Assembly (NCBI GenBank): GCA_027005735.1 | Contig: JALTLF010000218.1 | Location: 22,935-86,934 of the forward strand | DNA: 64,000 nt | Direction: 5' to 3' | Origin: Chromatiales bacterium | GTDB taxonomy: Bacteria; Pseudomonadota; Gammaproteobacteria; CAMYNG01 | In this document: in pieces, positions 3,641-17,710 of the stretch | Layout: each line of letters begins with the position of its first letter | Position numbering within the stretch: position 1 is the first letter of the stretch | The notes under the pieces: model-generated | The model's database searches: none | Seen by the model: only the letters and a program-made list of their open reading frames with translations | What the model was told of the DNA's origin: nothing | Position numbers and translations under genes: made by a program

Positions 3641-4099
3641 TCAACCCGCGCCGGGGATATCCCGCAGCAGGTCGAGATGGTAGCGCCGGCCCGCCAGGTA
3701 GTCGTCGATGCAGCGCATGACCAGCGGGCTGCGCAGCGGCAGGCCGGCGAGTTCCGCGTAGGGCTTCCAGTGGGTGGCGACGATGGCCGAATCCAGTGGC
3801 CGGGCCGCGGCATCGCGGCGGATCTGGCCGCCGAAACAGAAGCGCAGGAAACAGGGACTGTCGGCGTCCCGTTGCCAGCGATAGATACCCACCAGGTAGC
3901 CGGGGGTGAAATGCAGGCCGGTTTCTTCCCGGGTTTCGCGTTGCACGGCCTCGATGAGGCTTTCGCCTTCTTCCAGGTGACCGGCGGGCTGGTTGAAGAC
4001 CCGCTGTCCGGCATCACGCTCTTCCACCAGCAGGAAGCATCCCGCCTCCTCGATGATGGCGGCCACCGTGGCGCGGGGTGTCCAGCGAGTTTCCGTCAT
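3641..4099 (-). CDS. NUDIX hydrolase (NudJ-like)
   Basis: Nudix box GHLEEGESLIEAVQRETREETG (GX5EX7REUXEEXGU). Sits upstream of mnmA exactly as nudJ does in E. coli. Confidence 0.8.
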   Translation of the reverse strand: MTETRWTPRATVAAIIEEAGCFLLVEERDAGQRVFNQPAGHLEEGESLIEAVQRETREETGLHFTPGYLVGIYRWQRDADSPCFLRFCFGGQIRRDAAARPLDSAIVATHWKPYAELAGLPLRSPLVMRCIDDYLAGRRYHLDLLRDIPGAG

Positions 4100-4809
4100 C
4101 AGCCGTGTTTGAGCAACGAGGCGACCTGTTCGCGCAGGAAGTGGTTTTCGTCTTCCAGTGAGAAAATGCAGTGGGACAGTTCGCGGTGGCTGTTGGCCAG
4201 GGTATTCAGGCGTTTCTTCAGTTCTTCGGGGCCAAGCTCGCCTTCCTCTTCGTCAAGCGTACTCAGAAACCGTTCCAGTTCTTCCTGCTGTTGCTTCATC
4301 AGGGCCCGGAGTTCCGCGATCTCGTCCTCGTCCTCGTCCTCGTCCCCGGTCTCCGTGACCGGGATGCGTTTCACCAGGTGGCAGCCGGTGAGCAGGCGGC
4401 GGATACCCTCGGCCAGGCGCTTCCAGAAGACGTCTTCGCGCGCCGTGTCCTGCAGGAGTTCCGCTTCGAGACCCAGGTAGCGGTCCCGCAGGGAAAGCAG
4501 ATCCGCCTCGGTGAGCTCCGGCTCCAGCGGCACGCCCTCGGGGTAGAGGCTCTCCAGCCGCCCCCTGGTGAGCTTGATCTCGGTGGCGAGGTAGTGCGCC
4601 GTACTGGTGTCTGGCCGCTCACCGTCAGTGGCGTTTTCCGCCTCGTCCATCTGCCGGCCGCGTTTCAGCCGGCGGAGGCGGAAGTACAGCCAGCCGCTGA
4701 GCAGGGCGAGGACCACGAGGAGCTGGATATAGAGGGCGATGGCAAGGGGGGAGAGGGTGATCACGGCATCCTGCCTTCCGGGGTGTGGATAGAGGGGCGC
4801 ACGAGACAA
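4099..4809 (-). CDS. Hypothetical membrane-anchored coiled-coil protein with an acidic DEDEDEDE tract
   Basis: One N-terminal TM helix (LSPLAIALYIQLLVVLALLSGWLYF), then charged coiled-coil-like sequence and a TGDEDEDEDEIAELRAL tract. Strong GC3 bias. The track start is TTG; a GTG near 4764 with an AGGA upstream is a plausible alternative. No recognisable family. Confidence 0.55.
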   Translation of the reverse strand: MSRAPLYPHPGRQDAVITLSPLAIALYIQLLVVLALLSGWLYFRLRRLKRGRQMDEAENATDGERPDTSTAHYLATEIKLTRGRLESLYPEGVPLEPELTEADLLSLRDRYLGLEAELLQDTAREDVFWKRLAEGIRRLLTGCHLVKRIPVTETGDEDEDEDEIAELRALMKQQQEELERFLSTLDEEEGELGPEELKKRLNTLANSHRELSHCIFSLEDENHFLREQVASLLKHG

Positions 4810-5560: not shown

Positions 5561-8548
5561 TTGAGCAGGGATCCCCACATGCAGCAGACTCCCCCGGCAG
5601 GCAACACGCGCTCCAGTATCCGGCGCCATTTCATGGTGCTCATGGCTGCGGTGTTTGTCGCGCTGCTGCTGGCGGTCTGGTACACCGAGAAACTGGTGCG
5701 CGATACCGCGGTGGAGGCGCGTCTGCAGGCCGACACCGAGGAACAGGTCACCGCCCGCCTGGCGGAACTGAAAAACCGCCTGCAGACCACCGAGACCGCG
5801 GTCTATGAGTACCTGCTGTTGTTCGATCCCGAACAGCGTCGGACCATCGACAAGCGGCTTGAAAACGCCACCGTGGCATTAAATGTCCTCAACCGCTTTT
5901 CCACCCAGTCCCCTTACGAGGGATTCGTTCGTGACCTGGAAGAACTGAAGACCCGGTATCAGGAAATGGAGGCGGGGGTGCGCGAAGCCGTGACGGTGGC
6001 CTCGCGGGCGGAGACGCGGTTCCCGGCAATGAATATCCTGCTCGATGAACTCTATGTCAGCAACGCGAGTTTTTCGCGTGCCGTGGAATCGGCCATTGAA
6101 GAAGCACGCGAAATGCACACCATGCCCCGGCAGCGCGAGATCAACGAGCTGCTGTGGAAAATCCGCTACTACTGGTCGCAGCAGATCAGCGCCTTTCGTA
6201 TCTTCGTCGCCAATCGCTCTGGTGTCTTTGGCACGCCTGACAAATCGCTGGGCGACAACCTGGCCAATATCAAGATCTATTTCGAGGAGATACAACGCCT
6301 GCTTGGTGAGTTACGCAAGTACGATGAAGAAGACCTGCTTGGCTTGCAGCAATCCGAGTCGCTGGCGGAGATGGAGCTGCAACGGGAACTCTACGTGCGT
6401 GGTTTCAATCGTGCCGCGGAGATCTATCTCTCCGATCGCTGGCGGGCCGATATTCCCATCGTGCGCGAGCGGATCCAGCCGGCCTTCCTCGCGCTGCATC
6501 ATCATATCGGCGAGATAGAGAACAGCCTGGCGCAGCGTAGCGAGTCCACCATGGCCAATACCCTGGGTACGACGGAAACCCTGTCGCGTTTCATCTGGCT
6601 GTTGACGGCTTTCGTCAGTCTGCTGCTGTATCTTGCCTACCTGGCATTCGAGCGCATCATCCGCAGGCCCATGCTGCAGGTCAGCCGTGCCATGGAGGCC
6701 GAGGCCACCGGCCAGGGATCGCGGCCCTTGCCGACGCAGGCCTACCAGACCGAGGAGACCCGTAACCTCATCACCGCCTTCGAACACATGCGCCGCGAGG
6801 TGAATTCCCGCCAGCAGCGCCTCGAGTCCATCCTCGACAATGCCGCCGAGGGCATCGTCGTCATCGACGCCCGCGGCTTCATCGAGTCGGCCAATTCCGC
6901 GGCGCAGGCCCTGTTCGGCTTCTCGGAGGACGAGATGAAGGGCCGGCATATCCGTCGCATGGTGACGAAGGGAAGCTGGAAGAAGTTCCTGTCGCTCTAC
7001 AATCATGGCCGCCGGGGCGCGGCGCAACACATCGAAGGCATCGAAGACGAATTCTATGGGCGGCGCAAGAACGGTGAGGCCTTTGCCATGGCGGTGAAGG
7101 TCTCGCAAATGGAAATCGAGGGTCGGGTGCTGGCCACGGCCCTGGTTTCCGATGTCAGCGAACGCAAGGCCATGGTGGAGAGCCTGCGGCGCATGGCCGA
7201 GCACGACGCCCTCACCGGGCTCTACAACCGCCAGTACCTGCTCGACGAGCTGGAACGGGTTCATGCCTCGGCGCAACGCAGTGGCCGCTACCACTCGGCG
7301 CTGATTTATATCGACCTCGATCATTTCAAGTACGTCAACGATACGCTTGGTCACCTGGCCGGCGACAAGGTGCTGGTGGAGGTCACCGAACTCCTGCGCG
7401 ATCGCCTGCGCAAGGAAGACATACTCGCCCGTCTGGGTGGTGATGAATTCGCCATCCTGCTCTATGACATCAGCCCCACGCAGCTACCGCAGGTGGCCGA
7501 TGCCTATCGCCGGCGCCTGTCGGGTTACGTATTCCGCCATGACGGTGAGGCAGTGGACGTGGGTTGTTCCATTGGCGCGGCGATGCTCGAGCCCGACGTC
7601 GCTTCGAAGGAGGACCTGCTGGCGCGCGCGGACCTGGCCTGCCATATCGCCAAGCACGGTGGCCGCAACCGTATCCACGTATATACCGCCCACGACAGCC
7701 GCAACATGGACGTCATGTCCGCCGACATGGGCTGGGCGCGGCGTATCAAGTCCGCCATCGAGGAGGATCGTTTCATTCTTGCGCGCCAGCCCATCATTGA
7801 ACTCTCCAGCGGCCGTATCAGCCGCTATGAACTCCTGCTGCGCATGCTCGACGAGGAGGGGGACATCATCATGCCCGGCGGTTTTCTCTCCTCGGCGGAG
7901 CGTTTCAGCCTGTCGGTGGATATCGACAAGTGGGTCATCGGCGCGGCCATGGAACGCGTGGCGCAGAGCCTGCGGGAAGGACGCCGGGTTTCCTATGCCA
8001 TCAACCTCAGCGCCGATTCCATCGGCTCGCCCGAAGTGATGCAGCTGATCAAGTCGCGTGTGCGGGAACTGCGGATCCCGCCGGAGATCCTCGTCTTCGA
8101 GATCACCGAGACGGTGGCGATCCGCAACCTGTCCAGCGCCGCCGATTTCATTACCGAGTTGCGCAATCTGGGTTGCCTGGCTGCCCTCGACGACTTCGGT
8201 TCGGGCTATTGTTCCTTCGCCTACCTGGAGGACATTCCCGTCGACATGATCAAGATCGACGGTTCCTTCGTGCGCGATCTGAAAGACGATGACCTGCACC
8301 AGACCATCGTGCGCGCCATCAACGATATTTCCCATGCCATGGGCAAACGGACCATCGCCGAGTTCGTCGAGGACCAGGAGACGATGGAACTGTTGAAGCA
8401 GATCGGCGTGGACATGGCCCAGGGCTACGCCATCGGTCGCCCGGAACTGCTGGGACGCACGGACGAGGAACGCATCGACGCCGACCGGAATCCGGACAAC
8501 ATCGTGCCCTTCGGCAAACAGCGCGGCTCACGTGCCGCCGACGACTGA
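5561..8548 (+). CDS. Membrane sensor with HAMP-PAS-GGDEF-EAL domains (c-di-GMP cyclase/phosphodiesterase)
   Basis: Two TM segments bracket a ~300-aa extracytoplasmic region. Then a HAMP-like linker, a PAS domain (ILDNAAEGIVVIDARGFIESANSAAQALFGF), a GGDEF domain with an intact RLGGDEF motif, and an EAL domain (ELLLRM, EITE, DDFGSG motifs). The true start may be the MQQT or MVLMAAV methionine a few codons in. Confidence 0.85.
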   Translation: MSRDPHMQQTPPAGNTRSSIRRHFMVLMAAVFVALLLAVWYTEKLVRDTAVEARLQADTEEQVTARLAELKNRLQTTETAVYEYLLLFDPEQRRTIDKRLENATVALNVLNRFSTQSPYEGFVRDLEELKTRYQEMEAGVREAVTVASRAETRFPAMNILLDELYVSNASFSRAVESAIEEAREMHTMPRQREINELLWKIRYYWSQQISAFRIFVANRSGVFGTPDKSLGDNLANIKIYFEEIQRLLGELRKYDEEDLLGLQQSESLAEMELQRELYVRGFNRAAEIYLSDRWRADIPIVRERIQPAFLALHHHIGEIENSLAQRSESTMANTLGTTETLSRFIWLLTAFVSLLLYLAYLAFERIIRRPMLQVSRAMEAEATGQGSRPLPTQAYQTEETRNLITAFEHMRREVNSRQQRLESILDNAAEGIVVIDARGFIESANSAAQALFGFSEDEMKGRHIRRMVTKGSWKKFLSLYNHGRRGAAQHIEGIEDEFYGRRKNGEAFAMAVKVSQMEIEGRVLATALVSDVSERKAMVESLRRMAEHDALTGLYNRQYLLDELERVHASAQRSGRYHSALIYIDLDHFKYVNDTLGHLAGDKVLVEVTELLRDRLRKEDILARLGGDEFAILLYDISPTQLPQVADAYRRRLSGYVFRHDGEAVDVGCSIGAAMLEPDVASKEDLLARADLACHIAKHGGRNRIHVYTAHDSRNMDVMSADMGWARRIKSAIEEDRFILARQPIIELSSGRISRYELLLRMLDEEGDIIMPGGFLSSAERFSLSVDIDKWVIGAAMERVAQSLREGRRVSYAINLSADSIGSPEVMQLIKSRVRELRIPPEILVFEITETVAIRNLSSAADFITELRNLGCLAALDDFGSGYCSFAYLEDIPVDMIKIDGSFVRDLKDDDLHQTIVRAINDISHAMGKRTIAEFVEDQETMELLKQIGVDMAQGYAIGRPELLGRTDEERIDADRNPDNIVPFGKQRGSRAADD

Positions 8549-10523: not shown

Positions 10524-10853
10524 ATGGCAAGCCGTAAAGATATTGAAAAATTCGACGACGGGCTGGCGCTGGAAGAGGCAAAACCGCGCCTCAAGAAGCC
10601 GCCCATGTATAAAGTTGTGCTGCTAAATGACGACTACACCCCTATGGAGTTTGTCGTGCACATCCTCGAGACCTTTTTTGGCATGGATCGTGTAAAGGCA
10701 ACCCGTGTGATGTGGATGGTCCACACCGAAGGCAAGGGGGTCTGTGGCGTCTTCACACGGGATATCGCCGAGACCAAGGTGGTGCAGGTCAACGAGTTCT
10801 CGCGCAAGCATGAGCATCCGCTGATGTGCACCCTCGAAGAATCCGATGGGTGA
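10524..10853 (+). CDS. clpS: ATP-dependent Clp protease adaptor ClpS
   Basis: [23 protein letters not shown] is the ClpS core; the gene lies immediately upstream of clpA. Confidence 0.9.
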
Positions 10854-10859
10854 ACAGTT

Positions 10860-13127
10860 ATGTTGAACAAGGAACTGGAAGCAGCACTCAACCAGGCTTT
10901 TCGCGAGGCCCGCGAGAAGGATCACGAATTCATGACCGTCGAGCACCTTCTGCTGGCCCTGCTCGACAACGACTCCGCGCGTGACGTGCTCACCGCCTGC
11001 GGCGCCGACATGAACGCCCTGCGCCGCGACCTGCAGGCCTTCCTCGAGGAGACCACGCCACTGTTGCCGCCCAACGACGAGCGCGAGACGCAGCCGACGC
11101 TGGGCTTCCAGCGCGTCCTGCAGCGCGCCGTGTTCCACGTGCAGTCCTCGGGCAAGCAGGAAGTCACCGGTGCCAACGTGCTGGTGGCCATCTTCAGCGA
11201 GCAGGAATCCCAGGCGGTGTATTTCCTCAAGCGCCAGGACATCTCCCGCCTCGACGTGGTCAACTACATCGCCCACGGTATTTCCAAGATCGGCGAGGAC
11301 GAGGGCCAGGCGGGTGAGGGCGTGGCCGGCAACGAGGAAGGTGGCGATACCCGCCAGAGCCCGCTGGAGCAGTTCACCAGCAACCTGAACGAACTTGCCC
11401 GTGCCGGCAAGATCGATCCCCTCATCGGCCGCAAGCACGAAATCGAACGCACCATCCAGATCCTCTGCCGTCGGCGCAAGAACAATCCGCTGTTCGTCGG
11501 CGAGGCCGGGGTGGGCAAGACGGCGCTGGCCGAGGGCCTGGCGAAGATGATTGTCGACGGCGAGGTGCCCGAGATCCTGCGGGATGCCACCATCTACTCC
11601 CTCGACATGGGTACCCTGCTGGCCGGCACCAAGTATCGCGGCGACTTCGAGAAGCGCCTCAAGGCCATCCTCGCCCAGCTCAAGCGCGAGGAAGGCGCCA
11701 TCCTGTTCATCGACGAGATCCATACCATCATCGGCGCGGGCGCGGCCTCGGGCGGCGCCATGGACGCCTCCAACCTGGTCAAGCCGGTGCTGGCCTCGGG
11801 GGAACTCAAGTGCATCGGTTCCACCACCTACCAGGAGTACCGCGGTATCTTCGAGAAGGACCGCGCCCTGGCGCGACGCTTCCAGAAGGTGGACGTCAAG
11901 GAACCGAGCGTCGAGGAGACCGTCCAGATCCTCGAGGGTCTCAAGAGCCGCTTCGAGGAACACCACGAGGTGCGCTATACGCGCCAGGCACTCCGGAGCG
12001 CCGCCGAGCTGGCGGAGCGCTACATCAATGATCGCCACCTGCCCGACAAGGCGGTGGACGTCATCGACGAGGCCGGCGCCAACCAGCGCATGCAGCCGGC
12101 CTCGAAGCGCAGGAAGACCATCGGCGTGCGTGAAGTGGAGTCGGTGGTGTCGAAGATCGCCCGTATTCCGCCGAAGTCCGTGTCGCGGGACGACAAGCAG
12201 GCGCTGCGCAACCTCGAGCGGGATCTCAAGCTGGTGATCTACGGGCAGGACGAAGCCATCGAGTCGCTCGCCACCGCCATCAAGCTGGCGCGCTCGGGTC
12301 TGTCCAGCGAGCACAAGCCCATCGGCTCCTTCCTGTTCGCCGGTCCCACCGGCGTGGGCAAGACCGAGGTCACGCGGCAACTGGCGCGCACGCTGGGTAT
12401 CGAGCTGATCCGCTTCGACATGTCCGAGTACATGGAACGCCATACCGTCTCGCGCCTCATCGGCGCGCCGCCGGGCTACGTCGGCTACGACCAGGGCGGC
12501 CTGCTCACCGAGGAAATCAACAAGCATCCCCATGCGGTGTTGCTGCTCGACGAGATCGAAAAGGCCCACCCGGATGTCTTCAACCTGCTCCTGCAGGTCA
12601 TGGACCACGGCACCCTGACGGACAACAACGGCCGCAAGGCCGATTTCCGCAACGTCATCATCGTCATGACCAGCAACGCCGGCGCGGACCGGCTGGATCG
12701 CCCGTCCATCGGCTTCACCCAGCAGGACCACAGCACGGATACCACCGAGGTGATTAACAAGGTCTTCTCGCCGGAATTCCGCAACCGCCTCGACGGCATC
12801 ATCCAGTTCCGCGCCCTGCAGCCGGACACCATCGGCAAGGTAGTGGACAAGTTCATCTTCGAACTGGAAGGCCAACTGGAGGAGAAGGGCGTCACGCTGA
12901 GCGTGGACGACGAGGCACGCACCTGGCTCGCCCTGCACGGCTACGATCCGAAGATGGGCGCCCGTCCCATGGCGCGGACCATACAGGAACACATCAAGAA
13001 GCCGCTCGCGGAGGAACTGTTGTTCGGCAAGCTTGCCCAGGGTGGGCACATTGCCATCAGCATTCGCGACGACGCCCTGCATTTCGAACTCACGGGCAAG
13101 AAGGAAGAGAAGGTCACCAGCGACTGA
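10860..13127 (+). CDS. clpA: ATP-dependent Clp protease ATP-binding subunit ClpA
   Basis: N-domain plus two AAA+ modules (GEAGVGKT and GPTGVGKT Walker A), 755 aa, directly following clpS. The minus-strand ORF 10623..13082 is a mirror artefact. Confidence 0.92.
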   Translation: MLNKELEAALNQAFREAREKDHEFMTVEHLLLALLDNDSARDVLTACGADMNALRRDLQAFLEETTPLLPPNDERETQPTLGFQRVLQRAVFHVQSSGKQEVTGANVLVAIFSEQESQAVYFLKRQDISRLDVVNYIAHGISKIGEDEGQAGEGVAGNEEGGDTRQSPLEQFTSNLNELARAGKIDPLIGRKHEIERTIQILCRRRKNNPLFVGEAGVGKTALAEGLAKMIVDGEVPEILRDATIYSLDMGTLLAGTKYRGDFEKRLKAILAQLKREEGAILFIDEIHTIIGAGAASGGAMDASNLVKPVLASGELKCIGSTTYQEYRGIFEKDRALARRFQKVDVKEPSVEETVQILEGLKSRFEEHHEVRYTRQALRSAAELAERYINDRHLPDKAVDVIDEAGANQRMQPASKRRKTIGVREVESVVSKIARIPPKSVSRDDKQALRNLERDLKLVIYGQDEAIESLATAIKLARSGLSSEHKPIGSFLFAGPTGVGKTEVTRQLARTLGIELIRFDMSEYMERHTVSRLIGAPPGYVGYDQGGLLTEEINKHPHAVLLLDEIEKAHPDVFNLLLQVMDHGTLTDNNGRKADFRNVIIVMTSNAGADRLDRPSIGFTQQDHSTDTTEVINKVFSPEFRNRLDGIIQFRALQPDTIGKVVDKFIFELEGQLEEKGVTLSVDDEARTWLALHGYDPKMGARPMARTIQEHIKKPLAEELLFGKLAQGGHIAISIRDDALHFELTGKKEEKVTSD

Positions 13128-13306: not shown

Positions 13307-13525
13307 CTATCTGCTGCGGAAGACGATGCGGCCCTTGCTGAGATCGTAGGGGGTCAGCTGAACGGTGACGCGGTCACCGGTGAGGATACGGATGTAGTGC
13401 TTGCGCATCTTGCCGGAGATATGGGCCGTGACGACGTGGCCGTTGTCCAGCTCGACGCGGAACATGGTGTTGGGCAGGGTGTCGATCACCGTGCCTTCCA
13501 TCTCGATGTGTTCTTCCTTTGCCAT
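13307..13525 (-). CDS. infA: Translation initiation factor IF-1
   Basis: [72 protein letters not shown] is nearly identical to E. coli IF-1. Start taken at the internal M of ORF 13307..13546. Confidence 0.93.
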
Positions 13526-13652: not shown

Positions 13653-13946
13653 TCAGAGCGCGTGACCGGCGAGGTCCGCCGGCGTCTCCCCGTGCGGGCT
13701 GTTCGCGTCGGCGGCGCGCGGCATGGCGCGCCACTGGATGCGACTCCAGGCGACGTGGGGATGCTGCACCCCGCGATCGATGAGCATCTCCATGCCCAGG
13801 AAACGGGAGATCCCTTCCATGCCCTCGATGCCCGCCAGCTCCGCGCGCAGGCGGGCGAGGTGGCGGGGATTGAGGTAGAGGAGCGTGGGCGCGACGCCGT
13901 GGCGGCGCCGGTAGTCGGTGGCAATGCGGTACAGGTAGCTCAGCAT
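13653..13946 (-). CDS. Hypothetical small protein (97 aa)
   Basis: Strong GC3 bias in this frame. It fills an otherwise ~500-bp gap between infA and bpt. No recognisable domain. Confidence 0.35.
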   Translation of the reverse strand: MLSYLYRIATDYRRRHGVAPTLLYLNPRHLARLRAELAGIEGMEGISRFLGMEMLIDRGVQHPHVAWSRIQWRAMPRAADANSPHGETPADLAGHAL

Positions 13947-14024: not shown

Positions 14025-14789
14025 TTAGACCGTCGCCGGGGTTCCACCCGCACCGTCCCCGTGCAGCTCCGCCTTCCAGTAGCGTCCATCGAAGGCCTCC
14101 AGGGGGCGGTAGCGGTTCTTGTAGGCCATCTTCGGGCATTCGGCGATCCAGTAGCCGAGGTAGAGCCACCGGCGCTCCAGCCGCACGGCTTGCCGTATCT
14201 GCCATAACACAGCATAGACGCCCAGCCCGCGGCGACCCTGATCGGGATCAAAGAAGGTGTAGACGGCCGACAGCGCGTCGCCGAGGTGATCGGTGACGGC
14301 CACCGCCAGCAGGCGGCCGTCCTCGCGGAATTCGTACAGACGGGTGTCGCTCCACGGACTGGAGATAAAGGCCATGTAGTGCTCGGGGGAATCCTGATCC
14401 ATGCCGCCGCCGCGATGGCGCGTGCTGATGTAGCGCCGGTAGAGGGCATAGTGCTCCTCGTCGAAACGTACCGGCCGTTGGTGGGTGGTGAGATGGGCGT
14501 TGCGTTTCCAGGTACGTCGCTGGCTGCGGCTGGCGACGAAGCGCGCCACCGGCACGCGCACCGGTACGCAGGCGTGACAGGTGGCGCAATGGGGTCGGTA
14601 GATGTGCTCCCCGCTGCGGCGAAAACCCAGCGCGGAGAGCCGGGTATAGAGCGCGTTGTCCATGCGCGCGGAGGGATCGGCAAACAGGGTGGTGGCCTCG
14701 CGGCCGGGCAGGTAACTGCATGCGTGGGGCACGGTGGCGTAGAAGTGCAACGACTCCAGACTGACGGGAATGTCCTTGCCGGCTTTCAT
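14025..14789 (-). CDS. bpt: Arginyl-tRNA--protein transferase (bacterial Bpt/Ate, Asp/Glu leucyltransferase family)
   Basis: [39 protein letters not shown]...[22 protein letters not shown]...YLGYWI is the Ate1/Bpt N- and C-domain signature. Start at the internal ATG (cat at 14787-14789), overlapping the aat stop by 4 nt. The upstream part of ORF 14025..15407 is read-through artefact. Confidence 0.85.
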
Positions 14790-15529
14790 GCGAATCGCTT
14801 TCCGTTTACCACCTCGTCCCTGATGCGCGGGTCCAGTTGCCAGCGCGATGGCCGAGCCGCTTCGGCGGTGTGGCGCGCCAGCAGGGCGTTGAACTGGCGA
14901 CGCGGGATCATCTCCGCGCCGAAACGCTCGAGGTGCGCGGTATGGACCTGGCAGTCGATGAGACGCACGCCGCGCCCCTGCAACTGCGCCACCATGTGCG
15001 CGAAGGCCACCTTGGAGGCATCGCTGACGCGGGCGAACATGGACTCGCCGTAGAACACCCGGCCGATGGCCACGCCGTAGAGGCCGCCGACGAGCTGGCC
15101 GTCCTGCCAGCACTCCATGGAGTGCGCCCAGCCCGCCGCGTGCAACCTTGCATAAGCATAGATCATTTCCTCGCCGATCCAGCTGCCCGGTTCCGCGTCC
15201 TGCCGGCGGGGCGCGGCGCAGGCGCGCATGACGTCCTCGAAGGCGGTGTCCATGCTCAAACGGAAGGGATCGCGGCGCAGGGTCTTGCGCAGGCTGCGCG
15301 AGAGGTGCAGTTTTTCCGGGAACAGCACCATGCGGGGATCCGGCGACCACCACAGGATGGGTTGCGGTTCGCTGTACCAGGGGAAGATCCCCCGGCGATA
15401 GGCGCACAGCAGTCGTTCGACGCCGAGATCGCCGCCCACCGCGAGCAGGCCGTCGGGTTTGCGCAGGGCGCTCTCGACGTCGGGGAAGCCGCAGGGATCG
15501 CGGGGATCGAGCCAGGGGATGTCCAGCAT
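14786..15529 (-). CDS. aat: Leucyl/phenylalanyl-tRNA--protein transferase
   Basis: [69 protein letters not shown] is colinear with E. coli Aat. Start at the internal ATG of ORF 14786..16057. Confidence 0.88.
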
Positions 15530-15542
15530 GGGATGGCGGTCC

Positions 15543-16703
15543 TCAGGCCCCGGCCAGGGCCCGGCTGTCGGCACGGAAGGGCGCGCCCTCGCGCAGGCTC
15601 TCCATGTAATGCCGCACGCCGGCCCGTTCGCGGCGCAGGAAGTCGGCCACCGGCTCGCGGAAGGCCGGTTCGCGCAGCCAGTGGGCCGACCAGGTGGGGG
15701 TGGGCAGGAAGCCGCGCGCCACCTTGTGTTCCCCCTGGGCGCCGGGTTCGAAGCGGGACAGGCCGTGGCGGATGCAGTAGTCCAGGCCCTGGTAGTAACA
15801 GGTCTCGAAGTGCAGGCTGTGAAAATAGCGATCACAGCCCCAGTGACGGCCGTAGAGGCTGGTGTCGTCCCGCAGGTTGAGGGCGGCGGCGACGTACTCG
15901 CCCGCGTGGCGCGCCAGCACCAGCACCACGGCCTCGGGCATGCTGCGGGCGATCTCCGCGAAGAAACCCGGCGAGAGGGTGGGCAGGCCGCCCTTGCGGT
16001 CGAAGGTAGCAGCGTAATAGTGATGGAACAGGCGCCAGTGTTCCTCGCCGGCGGCATGACCGTCGAGGATCTCGAAGCTCACCGCCTGTTCCGCGGCGCG
16101 GCGGCGTTCGCGTTTGATCTTCTTGCGCTTCGCCGCGGTGAACTCGGCAAGGTAGTCGTCGAAGTCACGGTAGCCGGCATTGTGCCAGTGGAACTGGCAG
16201 CCGAGGCGTAGCATGAAGCCGGCCTCTTCGAGCCGGGCGGCTTCCGCCTCGGGGGGGAACAGCCAGTGCACGCCGGACAGTTCCCGTTCCTCGGCAAAGC
16301 CGCGCAGCGCTTCGCCGAAGCGGCGGGTGATGGCGTCGCGCTCGGCCTCGTGGGCGGGATCGATGAGCAGGCGCGGCCCGGTGACCGGCGAATAGGGCAC
16401 CGCCGCCACCAGCTTGGGGTAGTAGGCCAGGCCGCTGCGCGCATAGGCCTCGGCCCAGGCCCAGTCGAAGACGAATTCGCCGTAGGAGTTGCTCTTGATG
16501 TAACAGGGCGCGGCGGCGCGCAGGCGGCCGTCGGCGCGCAGGAGGAAGTACACCGGCAGCCAGCCGTAGGCCTCGCCCACCGCGCCGTGGCGCTCCAGCG
16601 CGACGAGGAATTCGTGGCGCAGGAAGGGATTGCCGCCGGGATTGAGCCGGTTCCAGTCCGCCGCCGGCACCGATTCCAGCGAGTGTGCCGTCTCCATGCG
16701 CAT
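15543..16703 (-). CDS. FemAB-like/DUF482 (COG3146) GNAT-fold N-acyltransferase
   Basis: About 387 aa. [32 protein letters not shown]...[24 protein letters not shown]...[53 protein letters not shown] is the conserved COG3146 'FemAB-related' core. Start at MRMET (16703) or MET (16697). Confidence 0.7.

Positions 16704-16741: not shown

Positions 16742-17710
<969 letters not shown>

Follow-up and report, generated by a model that had tools for sequence, protein, structure and literature searches.

A DUF482 protein with a predicted Fem/MprF-type tandem-GNAT architecture is encoded in a lineage-specific operon with aat and bpt

Introduction

The closest described systems to the DUF482 protein family (PF04339, COG3146) are the FemABX transferases (FemX, FemA and FemB), Sbb17 and Sba18 of streptothricin-type antibiotic pathways (PDB 9WQW-9WQY), the C-terminal domain (DUF2156) of MprF or aminoacyl-phosphatidylglycerol synthase, and fungal ErdS. 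Here we analyze a DUF482 gene encoded together with the transferase genes aat and bpt in a 64,000-nucleotide stretch of DNA – referred to throughout, at its full length, as the window – from Chromatiales bacterium (GenBank assembly GCA_027005735.1, contig JALTLF010000218.1, positions 22,935 to 86,934 of the forward strand). Aat and Bpt/ATE1 share with the DUF482 protein a GNAT-type catalytic domain, the use of charged tRNA as donor (predicted for DUF482), and, in the clade described here, the same operon.

Transfer from charged tRNA by tandem-GNAT enzymes involves a positively charged helix between the two domains (GNAT I and GNAT II), which binds tRNA (PMC7334510). This helix is conserved in L-PGS, A-PGS, FemX, Aat and Ate1 and absent from other GNATs, and a catalytic lysine follows an aromatic residue in FemX (F304-K305) and Ate1 (Y303-K304), the lysines of L-PGS and A-PGS being K813 and K840 (PMC9351520).

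The resemblance of DUF482 to FemAB is already on record, in the Pfam name of the family. At2g23390 of Arabidopsis is listed under COG3146 by Gerdes et al. (PMC3223725), was recovered in the chloroplast soluble proteome (PMC3531887), and its gene has been proposed to be alphaproteobacterial in origin (PMC3493653). Cotton GhACNAT is, per the literature, a member of the same family, and its silencing causes male sterility, reported without biochemistry (PMC4488762). A pterin-dependent enzyme was predicted from genomic context by Gerdes et al., and a benzoate-hydroxylase hypothesis for a Xanthomonas protein was invalidated (PMC3223725).

Here, we present evidence that the DUF482-aat-bpt operon is real and conserved in essentially one gammaproteobacterial clade. 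We consider the best explanation to be that the DUF482 protein is an aminoacyl-tRNA-dependent transferase, its acceptor left open, encoded in a lineage-specific aat-bpt operon, and give this a probability of roughly 55%. New to the family are the quantitative structural support with a basic interdomain helix, the coupled aat-bpt operon in one clade, and the clade-specificity of that linkage.

Results

The DUF482-aat-bpt operon and its conservation among relatives

A preliminary description of this sequence had recognized bpt, aat and a DUF482 gene side by side, and the open reading frame (ORF) listing and family matches agree on all three, with the following layout:

15543..16703, minus strand: DUF482 (FemAB_like) gene, a 386-aa ORF matching PF04339 over its full length; predicted tandem-GNAT protein, first gene of DUF482-aat-bpt
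14786..15529, minus strand: aat, leucyl/phenylalanyl-tRNA–protein transferase (PF03588, TIGR00667, IDCQ motif)
14025..14789, minus strand: bpt, ATE-type aminoacyl-tRNA–protein transferase (ATE_N, ATE_C, NF002341)
15530..15542, minus strand: DUF482-aat spacer of 13 nt, between the DUF482 stop (15545-15543) and the aat ATG (15529)
14786..14789, minus strand: overlap of aat stop and bpt start, 4-nt ATGA type, read from the sequence

The aat product matches PF03588 (E 4.8e-77) and TIGR00667 (217.6 bits, cut-off 143.55), and the bpt product ATE_N (E 2.9e-25), ATE_C (E 1.4e-42) and NF002341 (349 bits, cut-off 252). The common strand and 13-nt spacing noted earlier for the DUF482 gene are correct, although it had been described as following bpt and aat and is in fact transcribed first, not last. 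The spacer is too short to hold a promoter or terminator.

Relatives were sought in one genome per GTDB species, and the 80 closest loci (48-78% protein identity) were compared, drawn from Chromatiales, Competibacteraceae, Thiohalomonadaceae, Granulosicoccaceae, Thiomargarita and relatives. Adjacency was counted by tBLASTn with the window proteins, the denominators being informative loci:

DUF482 followed by aat: 66/77 loci within 300 nt, 70/77 within 1.6 kb
aat followed by bpt: 57/66 loci within 300 nt, 59/66 within 3 kb
trxB (the thioredoxin reductase gene) followed by DUF482: 24/76 loci within 300 nt, 50/76 within 2.5 kb

The DUF482-aat junction is retained as faithfully as the aat-bpt junction, and far better than that between trxB and DUF482. 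Heuristic start-site prediction, with representative junctions inspected by eye, places the DUF482 stop and the aat start in overlap in 46 of 71 loci. Twenty-seven of these overlaps are of the 4-nt ATGA type (confirmed by eye in eight loci), and those of Competibacteraceae span 26-32 nt. Such overlapping codons suggest a co-transcribed and translationally coupled DUF482-aat pair.

The DUF482-aat block persists where its flanks have changed, as in Competibacteraceae, Thiomargarita and Lamprocystis. In 16 loci trxB and DUF482 are separated by a PilZ/YcgR-like gene (approximately 223 aa, judged from sequence), which in 14 cases is on the opposite strand (the 16 include L002, L003, L007, L011, L015, L017, L020, L024, L026, L029, L032 and L039). 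With this gene in between, trxB cannot share the DUF482 transcript, and DUF482 leads its own unit there.

Many loci have DUF482-aat followed directly by convergent clpA-clpS and no detectable bpt (L043, L074, L103, L107, L120, L121, L132, L136, L165, L174 and others), so that the DUF482-aat pair is kept even at loci without bpt.

Predicted fold and candidate functional residues

An AlphaFold2 (AF2) model of the DUF482 protein, built on 26 sequences, has a mean predicted local distance difference test score (pLDDT) of 91.4 and a predicted template modelling score (pTM) of 0.90, and consists of two GNAT-type alpha/beta halves. Foldseek comparison with the PDB ranks Weissella FemX first (E ~1e-12), followed by Sbb17/Sba18, FemA, A-PGS/MprF, and then tandem GNATs that use acetyl-CoA; lower structural-comparison scores were obtained for the acetyl-CoA enzyme ORF14 (12.9), ATE1 (10.3) and Aat (9.4). 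The modelled protein has two consecutive GNAT domains, and its closest fold neighbours are of the Fem/MprF-DUF2156/Sbb17 type. Comparison of a predicted structure with FemX and Aat had been proposed in the preliminary description, and the outcome – a Fem/MprF architecture with a conserved positively charged helix between the GNAT domains – did not refute its idea.

That helix (residues 190-205) sits at the domain junction, between strand 164-174, the last of GNAT I, and strand 208-213, the first of GNAT II. The mean net charge of residues 188-206 is +5.9 to +6.3, with a range of +3 to +8, over sets of 31 diverse and 95 sequences, all 126 of which have R193 and R200. By sequence and secondary structure DUF482 has the basic-helix hallmark of tRNA-dependent GNATs, and contact with tRNA is predicted. 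In GNAT II, K327 is present in 95/95 and 31/31 sequences and H326 in 93/95, within the motif GAQGEHK, and H326-K327 is a candidate equivalent of the FemX F304-K305 and Ate1 Y303-K304 pairs. The two elements are encoded as follows:

16086..16142, minus strand: codons of the basic interdomain helix, residues 188-206; candidate alpha(+) helix for the tRNA acceptor arm
15723..15728, minus strand: codons of H326-K327 within GAQGEHK; candidate for the catalytic aromatic-Lys pair

The protein nonetheless stands apart from each of the described systems. It is 11-14% identical to FemABX proteins (Weissella viridescens FemX, 4II9 and 1NE9), does not match the FemAB profile PF02388 at E <= 0.01, has an extra long C-terminal helix (346-372), and is found in Gram-negative proteobacteria and plants, neither of which is known to form interpeptide bridges. 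Sbb17 and Sba18 are actinomycete secondary-metabolite enzymes acting on an aminosugar, whereas DUF482 is of housekeeping type, and MprF, whose substrates are lipids, is joined to a membrane flippase domain, whereas DUF482 stands alone. By sequence or close structure it is also outside the Aat (PF03588) and ATE (PF04376+PF04377) families.

An ordinary acyl-CoA-dependent N-acyltransferase, with no tRNA role and a neighbourhood of coincidental synteny, would fit the source annotations (‘GNAT family N-acetyltransferase’ and ‘acyl-CoA N-acyltransferase’), the match of the DUF482 protein to PF13480 (Acetyltransf_6), and its significant structural matches to the acetyl-CoA tandem GNATs 2wpw, VipF and Eis. 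The plant homolog is annotated in the same way, and silencing of the cotton homolog altered lipid and jasmonate readouts as well as fertility (PMC4488762). However, the database names are automatic, and Aat and Bpt themselves match PF13480. The CoA motif Q/R-x-x-G-x-G/A was not found at beta4-alpha3 of either GNAT half by a regular-expression search, a weak test given that Aat and Bpt also yield chance matches; the sole match in DUF482 is RRFGEA at residue 127, which falls within helix 116-139 of GNAT I. An interdomain helix like the conserved one of DUF482, with its charge of about +6, has moreover been described as absent from other GNATs (PMC9351520). We regard an acyl-CoA donor without any tRNA role as unlikely, and on the predicted fold and motifs aminoacyl-tRNA is the likely donor and its transfer the most likely mechanism.

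Size and conservation of the DUF482 family

The window protein matches PF04339 with an E value of 1.2e-146 (489 bits, cut-off 27), residues 8-377 aligning to profile positions 1-368 of 369. The family has more than 7,900 database proteins at E <= 1e-5 and at least 1,140 clusters (50% identity) at E <= 1e-30, and is distributed across Proteobacteria and also Acidobacteria. Relatives that share 53-77% identity with the window protein have a column identity of 66% on average. Approximately 20 residues are invariant over diverse representatives, all of them present in the window protein and identical in aat-linked and unlinked lineages. The gene is widespread, highly conserved, present in single copy and of housekeeping type, and at the bacterial loci examined it stands alone, encoding about 380 aa.

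Ten longer family members provide no informative fusion domain, having only N-terminal extensions and a single HhH-GPD fusion, which probably reflects a neighbouring gene. The fusion protein (P0266, 740 aa) joins DUF482 to HhH-GPD and is possibly a gene-call read-through. A same-strand gene for an HhH-GPD (AlkA-like glycosylase) protein lies 3′ of DUF482 in five loci (L100, L101, L102, L109 and L142) of a low-identity lineage linked to ubiA.

Sequence-level relatives of known structure are few. A PDB sequence search with the single DUF482 protein gave no match, the full-length family profile gave a marginal match to Sbb17 (E 0.22), and the GNAT II profile matched Sba18/Sbb17 (E 0.02), the sole real sequence-level relatives in the PDB. 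A match to RtcB, which outscored Sba18, and one to 3f8h, both with the GNAT II profile, were rejected as artefacts in which the family motif LHFExCYYQG pairs with a His-tag/TEV linker (HHHHHHENLYFQG). This motif is invariant in DUF482 (residues 297-306, window approximately 15786-15815), and its spurious PDB matches are 9i8v and 3f8h. The likeness to a tag linker is a pitfall for PDB searches with this family.

Flanking genes in the window

The genes on either side of the operon, and the promoter-like sites found, are:

16742..17707, minus strand: trxB, thioredoxin reductase, 38 nt upstream of DUF482
17852-17824, minus strand: promoter-like site ahead of trxB, from a simple consensus scan
13653..13946, minus strand: orf97, a 97-aa ORF downstream of bpt and before infA, with a strong GAAGGAGG ribosome-binding site
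13307..13525, minus strand: infA (IF1), recognized from its translation
13598-13570, minus strand: promoter-like site ahead of infA, from the consensus scan
10524-10853, plus strand: clpS ORF, the N-degron adaptor
10860-13127, plus strand: clpA ORF, the N-degron unfoldase

Transcription runs in the order trxB, DUF482, aat, bpt, orf97, infA, all on the minus strand, and GC content is uniform over the region. In the simple consensus scan promoter-like sites appear only ahead of trxB and infA, and no promoter-like or terminator-like site was seen on the minus strand from trxB to bpt, which is weak evidence and agrees with co-transcription.

The clpS and clpA genes had been described as lying 2 kb upstream of the transferase genes, which is not the case: they are encoded on the other strand and converge on the infA end of the string, and the 3′ ends of clpA and bpt are approximately 0.9 kb apart, with infA and a small ORF between them. 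The position of clpS-clpA is kept in related loci.

The product of orf97 has no match in Pfam or NCBIfam. Homologs occupy the same position downstream of bpt in 11/80 related loci, and also in L116, and share a core of approximately 73 aa, MLSF[IV]Y...EHG..PN.LY.N..H...LGME..V....HP.V.W. This gene may be a fourth and last member of the DUF482-aat-bpt unit.

How far the linkage reaches

A more distant set comprised 14 orthologs (35-48% identity) with their flanks, from Oceanicoccus, Marinobacterium, Thalassotalea, Halomonas, Pseudomonas aeruginosa, Ralstonia, Methylobacterium, Sinorhizobium, Sphingomonas, Azospirillum, an acidobacterium, and three more genomes. Neither aat nor bpt is within 4-5 kb of DUF482 in any of the 14. 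The P. aeruginosa ortholog, which we take to be PAO1 locus PA3230, has actP and ppiA nearby and neither aat nor bpt inside 4 kb. The conservation of linkage raised in the preliminary description accordingly holds for related species, with DUF482 and aat adjacent in 66 of 77, but does not extend beyond essentially one clade.

The acidobacterial DUF482 protein served as lead for a metagenome scan that gives a more even sampling of the family. Its 80 loci share 37-45% identity with that lead and 37-55% with the window protein. In this sample aat adjoins DUF482 in 22/71 informative loci, always within the trxB...clpA backbone. The DUF482-aat-bpt arrangement recurs in related species and in the metagenome sample, and is not a chance one. 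In neighbour-joining trees the aat-linked DUF482 genes form one contiguous block, within which the linkage has been lost from about a dozen nested members, and there is one outlier with the same backbone. A sister block of 22 leaves contains the ubiC-ubiA, DUF938 and HIT contexts, and alphaproteobacterial, betaproteobacterial, Pseudomonas and acidobacterial sequences fall outside both blocks. The aat linkage goes back to essentially one evolutionary event followed by long retention.

Two further arrangements were noted in single loci or small groups. In three alpha-like loci clpA is convergent with DUF482 and 0.3-2.3 kb downstream of it, with no aat or bpt between (L146, 3811-4161; L166, 8420-10974, with clpS; L090, 6833-9085). 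An independent N-degron link through this clpA was set aside, as it is found in 3/16 leaves only and azlC and azlD intervene in Sinorhizobium; it is probably local synteny. In an acidobacterial metagenome-assembled genome (L084, 3358-7240) the start of DUF482 shares 4 nt with an M28 peptidase gene, and a gene for an M43 peptidase comes next on the same strand, the M28 overlap being a single case that was not seen again in the metagenome sample.

These distributions bear on whether DUF482 is a third N-degron aminoacyl-tRNA–protein transferase, making substrates for Aat and Bpt or ClpS-recognised ends directly. Such a role would explain the translational coupling of DUF482 to aat. It would also suit a tight pair with codon overlaps that is kept as often as aat-bpt, a fold of aminoacyl-tRNA-transferase type with a basic interdomain helix, and a place within the aat-bpt-clpSA neighbourhood; the acidobacterial M28 aminopeptidase overlap and the convergent clpA of the three alpha-like loci are isolated hints in the same direction. 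Against it, the linkage has a single origin and is confined to essentially one clade, with 0/14 distant genomes sharing it and the P. aeruginosa ortholog located near actP/ppiA, and the sister clade has an equally tight ubiC-ubiA-DUF482 arrangement. Function does not track linkage, since linked and unlinked lineages have the same invariant residues; infA and other unrelated genes have remained part of the neighbourhood as well; and in predicted structure DUF482 resembles enzymes that act on non-protein or cell-wall-precursor acceptors far more than it does Aat/ATE1. The family is also found in plants (PMC3223725). We hold this role to be improbable, and no more probable is the broader idea of a third aminoacyl-tRNA–protein or peptide transferase that, where coupled to Aat, prepares N-termini for Aat or Bpt or tags ones that neither of them can handle, with a possible role in plastids.

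The ubiC-ubiA context

Sister-clade DUF482 genes follow ubiC-ubiA immediately and in the same orientation; the apparent gaps are 6-93 nt, and in L083 the overlap is 11 nt. Within the metagenome sample ubiA immediately precedes DUF482, in the same orientation, in 9/65 informative loci and in four more at contig edges. The ubiC-ubiA-DUF482 loci are L081 (3202-6164), L083 (3499-6170), L100-L102, L105, L109, L113, L117, L124, L142 and L170, and their ubiA sequences share 38% to 69% identity with the reference ubiA. This context is probably the source of the older, invalidated prediction of a benzoate hydroxylase for COG3146.

A gene for a DUF938 protein (PF06080, methyltransferase-like) is adjacent to or near DUF482 in 12 loci that do not have aat (L081, L083, L086, L087, L096, L110, L112, L117, L122, L125, L059 at 3916-4515, and L069 at 5591-6181). 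It is convergent in the ubiA-linked clade, and co-directional and overlapping the DUF482 stop in L059 and L069, which fall inside the aat-linked clade. The window contains no DUF938 gene.

These contexts raise the possibility that DUF482 acts in general metabolism by modifying a small molecule or lipid, in an aminoacyl-tRNA-dependent or other reaction, and that its position ahead of aat is a historical insertion; a link to the 4-hydroxybenzoate/ubiquinone branch or to the DUF938 methyltransferase-like protein would be one example. The immediate same-strand position of ubiA in 13 loci speaks for this, as does the recurrence of DUF938 in both orientations, and the nearest structures belong to enzymes acting on UDP-MurNAc-pentapeptide, an aminosugar and phosphatidylglycerol. 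COG3146 was also tied by context to pterin and benzoate metabolism by Gerdes et al., yet complementation of benzoate hydroxylase, the sole experimental test, was negative (PMC3223725). The ubiA and DUF938 contexts, too, belong to one clade of 22 leaves; no transmembrane segment or lipid-binding feature was seen, although no dedicated look was made; and a historical insertion leaves unexplained why the DUF482-aat overlap is retained while the trxB-DUF482 junction decays. We regard a small-molecule or lipid role of this kind as a tentative alternative, possible and on the doubtful side.

Discussion

We favour an aminoacyl-tRNA-dependent aminoacyl transferase encoded in a lineage-specific operon. 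The conserved unit would be DUF482, aat and bpt, perhaps with orf97, inserted into an old gammaproteobacterial gene string, ftsK-trxB-...-aat-bpt-infA / clpA-clpS, and the operon would co-express three enzymes drawing on charged tRNA. In the DUF482 protein itself, GNAT II together with the basic helix would hold the aminoacylated CCA end and acceptor arm of the charged tRNA, GNAT I would present the amine (or hydroxyl) of the acceptor, and K327 would stabilise the tetrahedral intermediate. Because the ortholog is found in quite different operons elsewhere, the aat-bpt linkage is best read as lineage-specific co-expression and not as proof of a shared N-degron role. The linkage and the Fem-type architecture on which the preliminary description built are both upheld, and N-terminal tagging, to which it extended them, is an improbable hypothesis.

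Several points weigh against the transferase assignment. Having arisen essentially once, the linkage is of limited weight as functional evidence – the neighbourhood argument is for this reason weaker than it first appears – and unrelated genes, e.g. infA, are also long retained in this neighbourhood. Assignment of the donor draws on the predicted fold, which acyl-CoA tandem GNATs also match, though less well, and the putative equivalence of K327 and FemX K305 comes from sequence. Alignment of DUF482 with the Aat and Bpt alignments from these loci by hhalign gave probabilities below 1%, in a comparison in which the positive control, aat against bpt, failed too. No biochemical function for any DUF482/PF04339/COG3146 member was found in the literature searched.

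Viewed together with its modelled fold, DUF482 is probably a distinct branch of the tRNA-dependent tandem-GNAT transferases, here within an aat-bpt module. The fold evidence puts it among the enzymes that divert charged tRNA from the ribosome, and provides a testable lead for de-orphaning a large and strongly conserved family. If a protein N-terminus were the acceptor, DUF482 would represent a new branch of the bacterial N-degron pathway; if a metabolite or lipid, it would represent a new tRNA-dependent modification.

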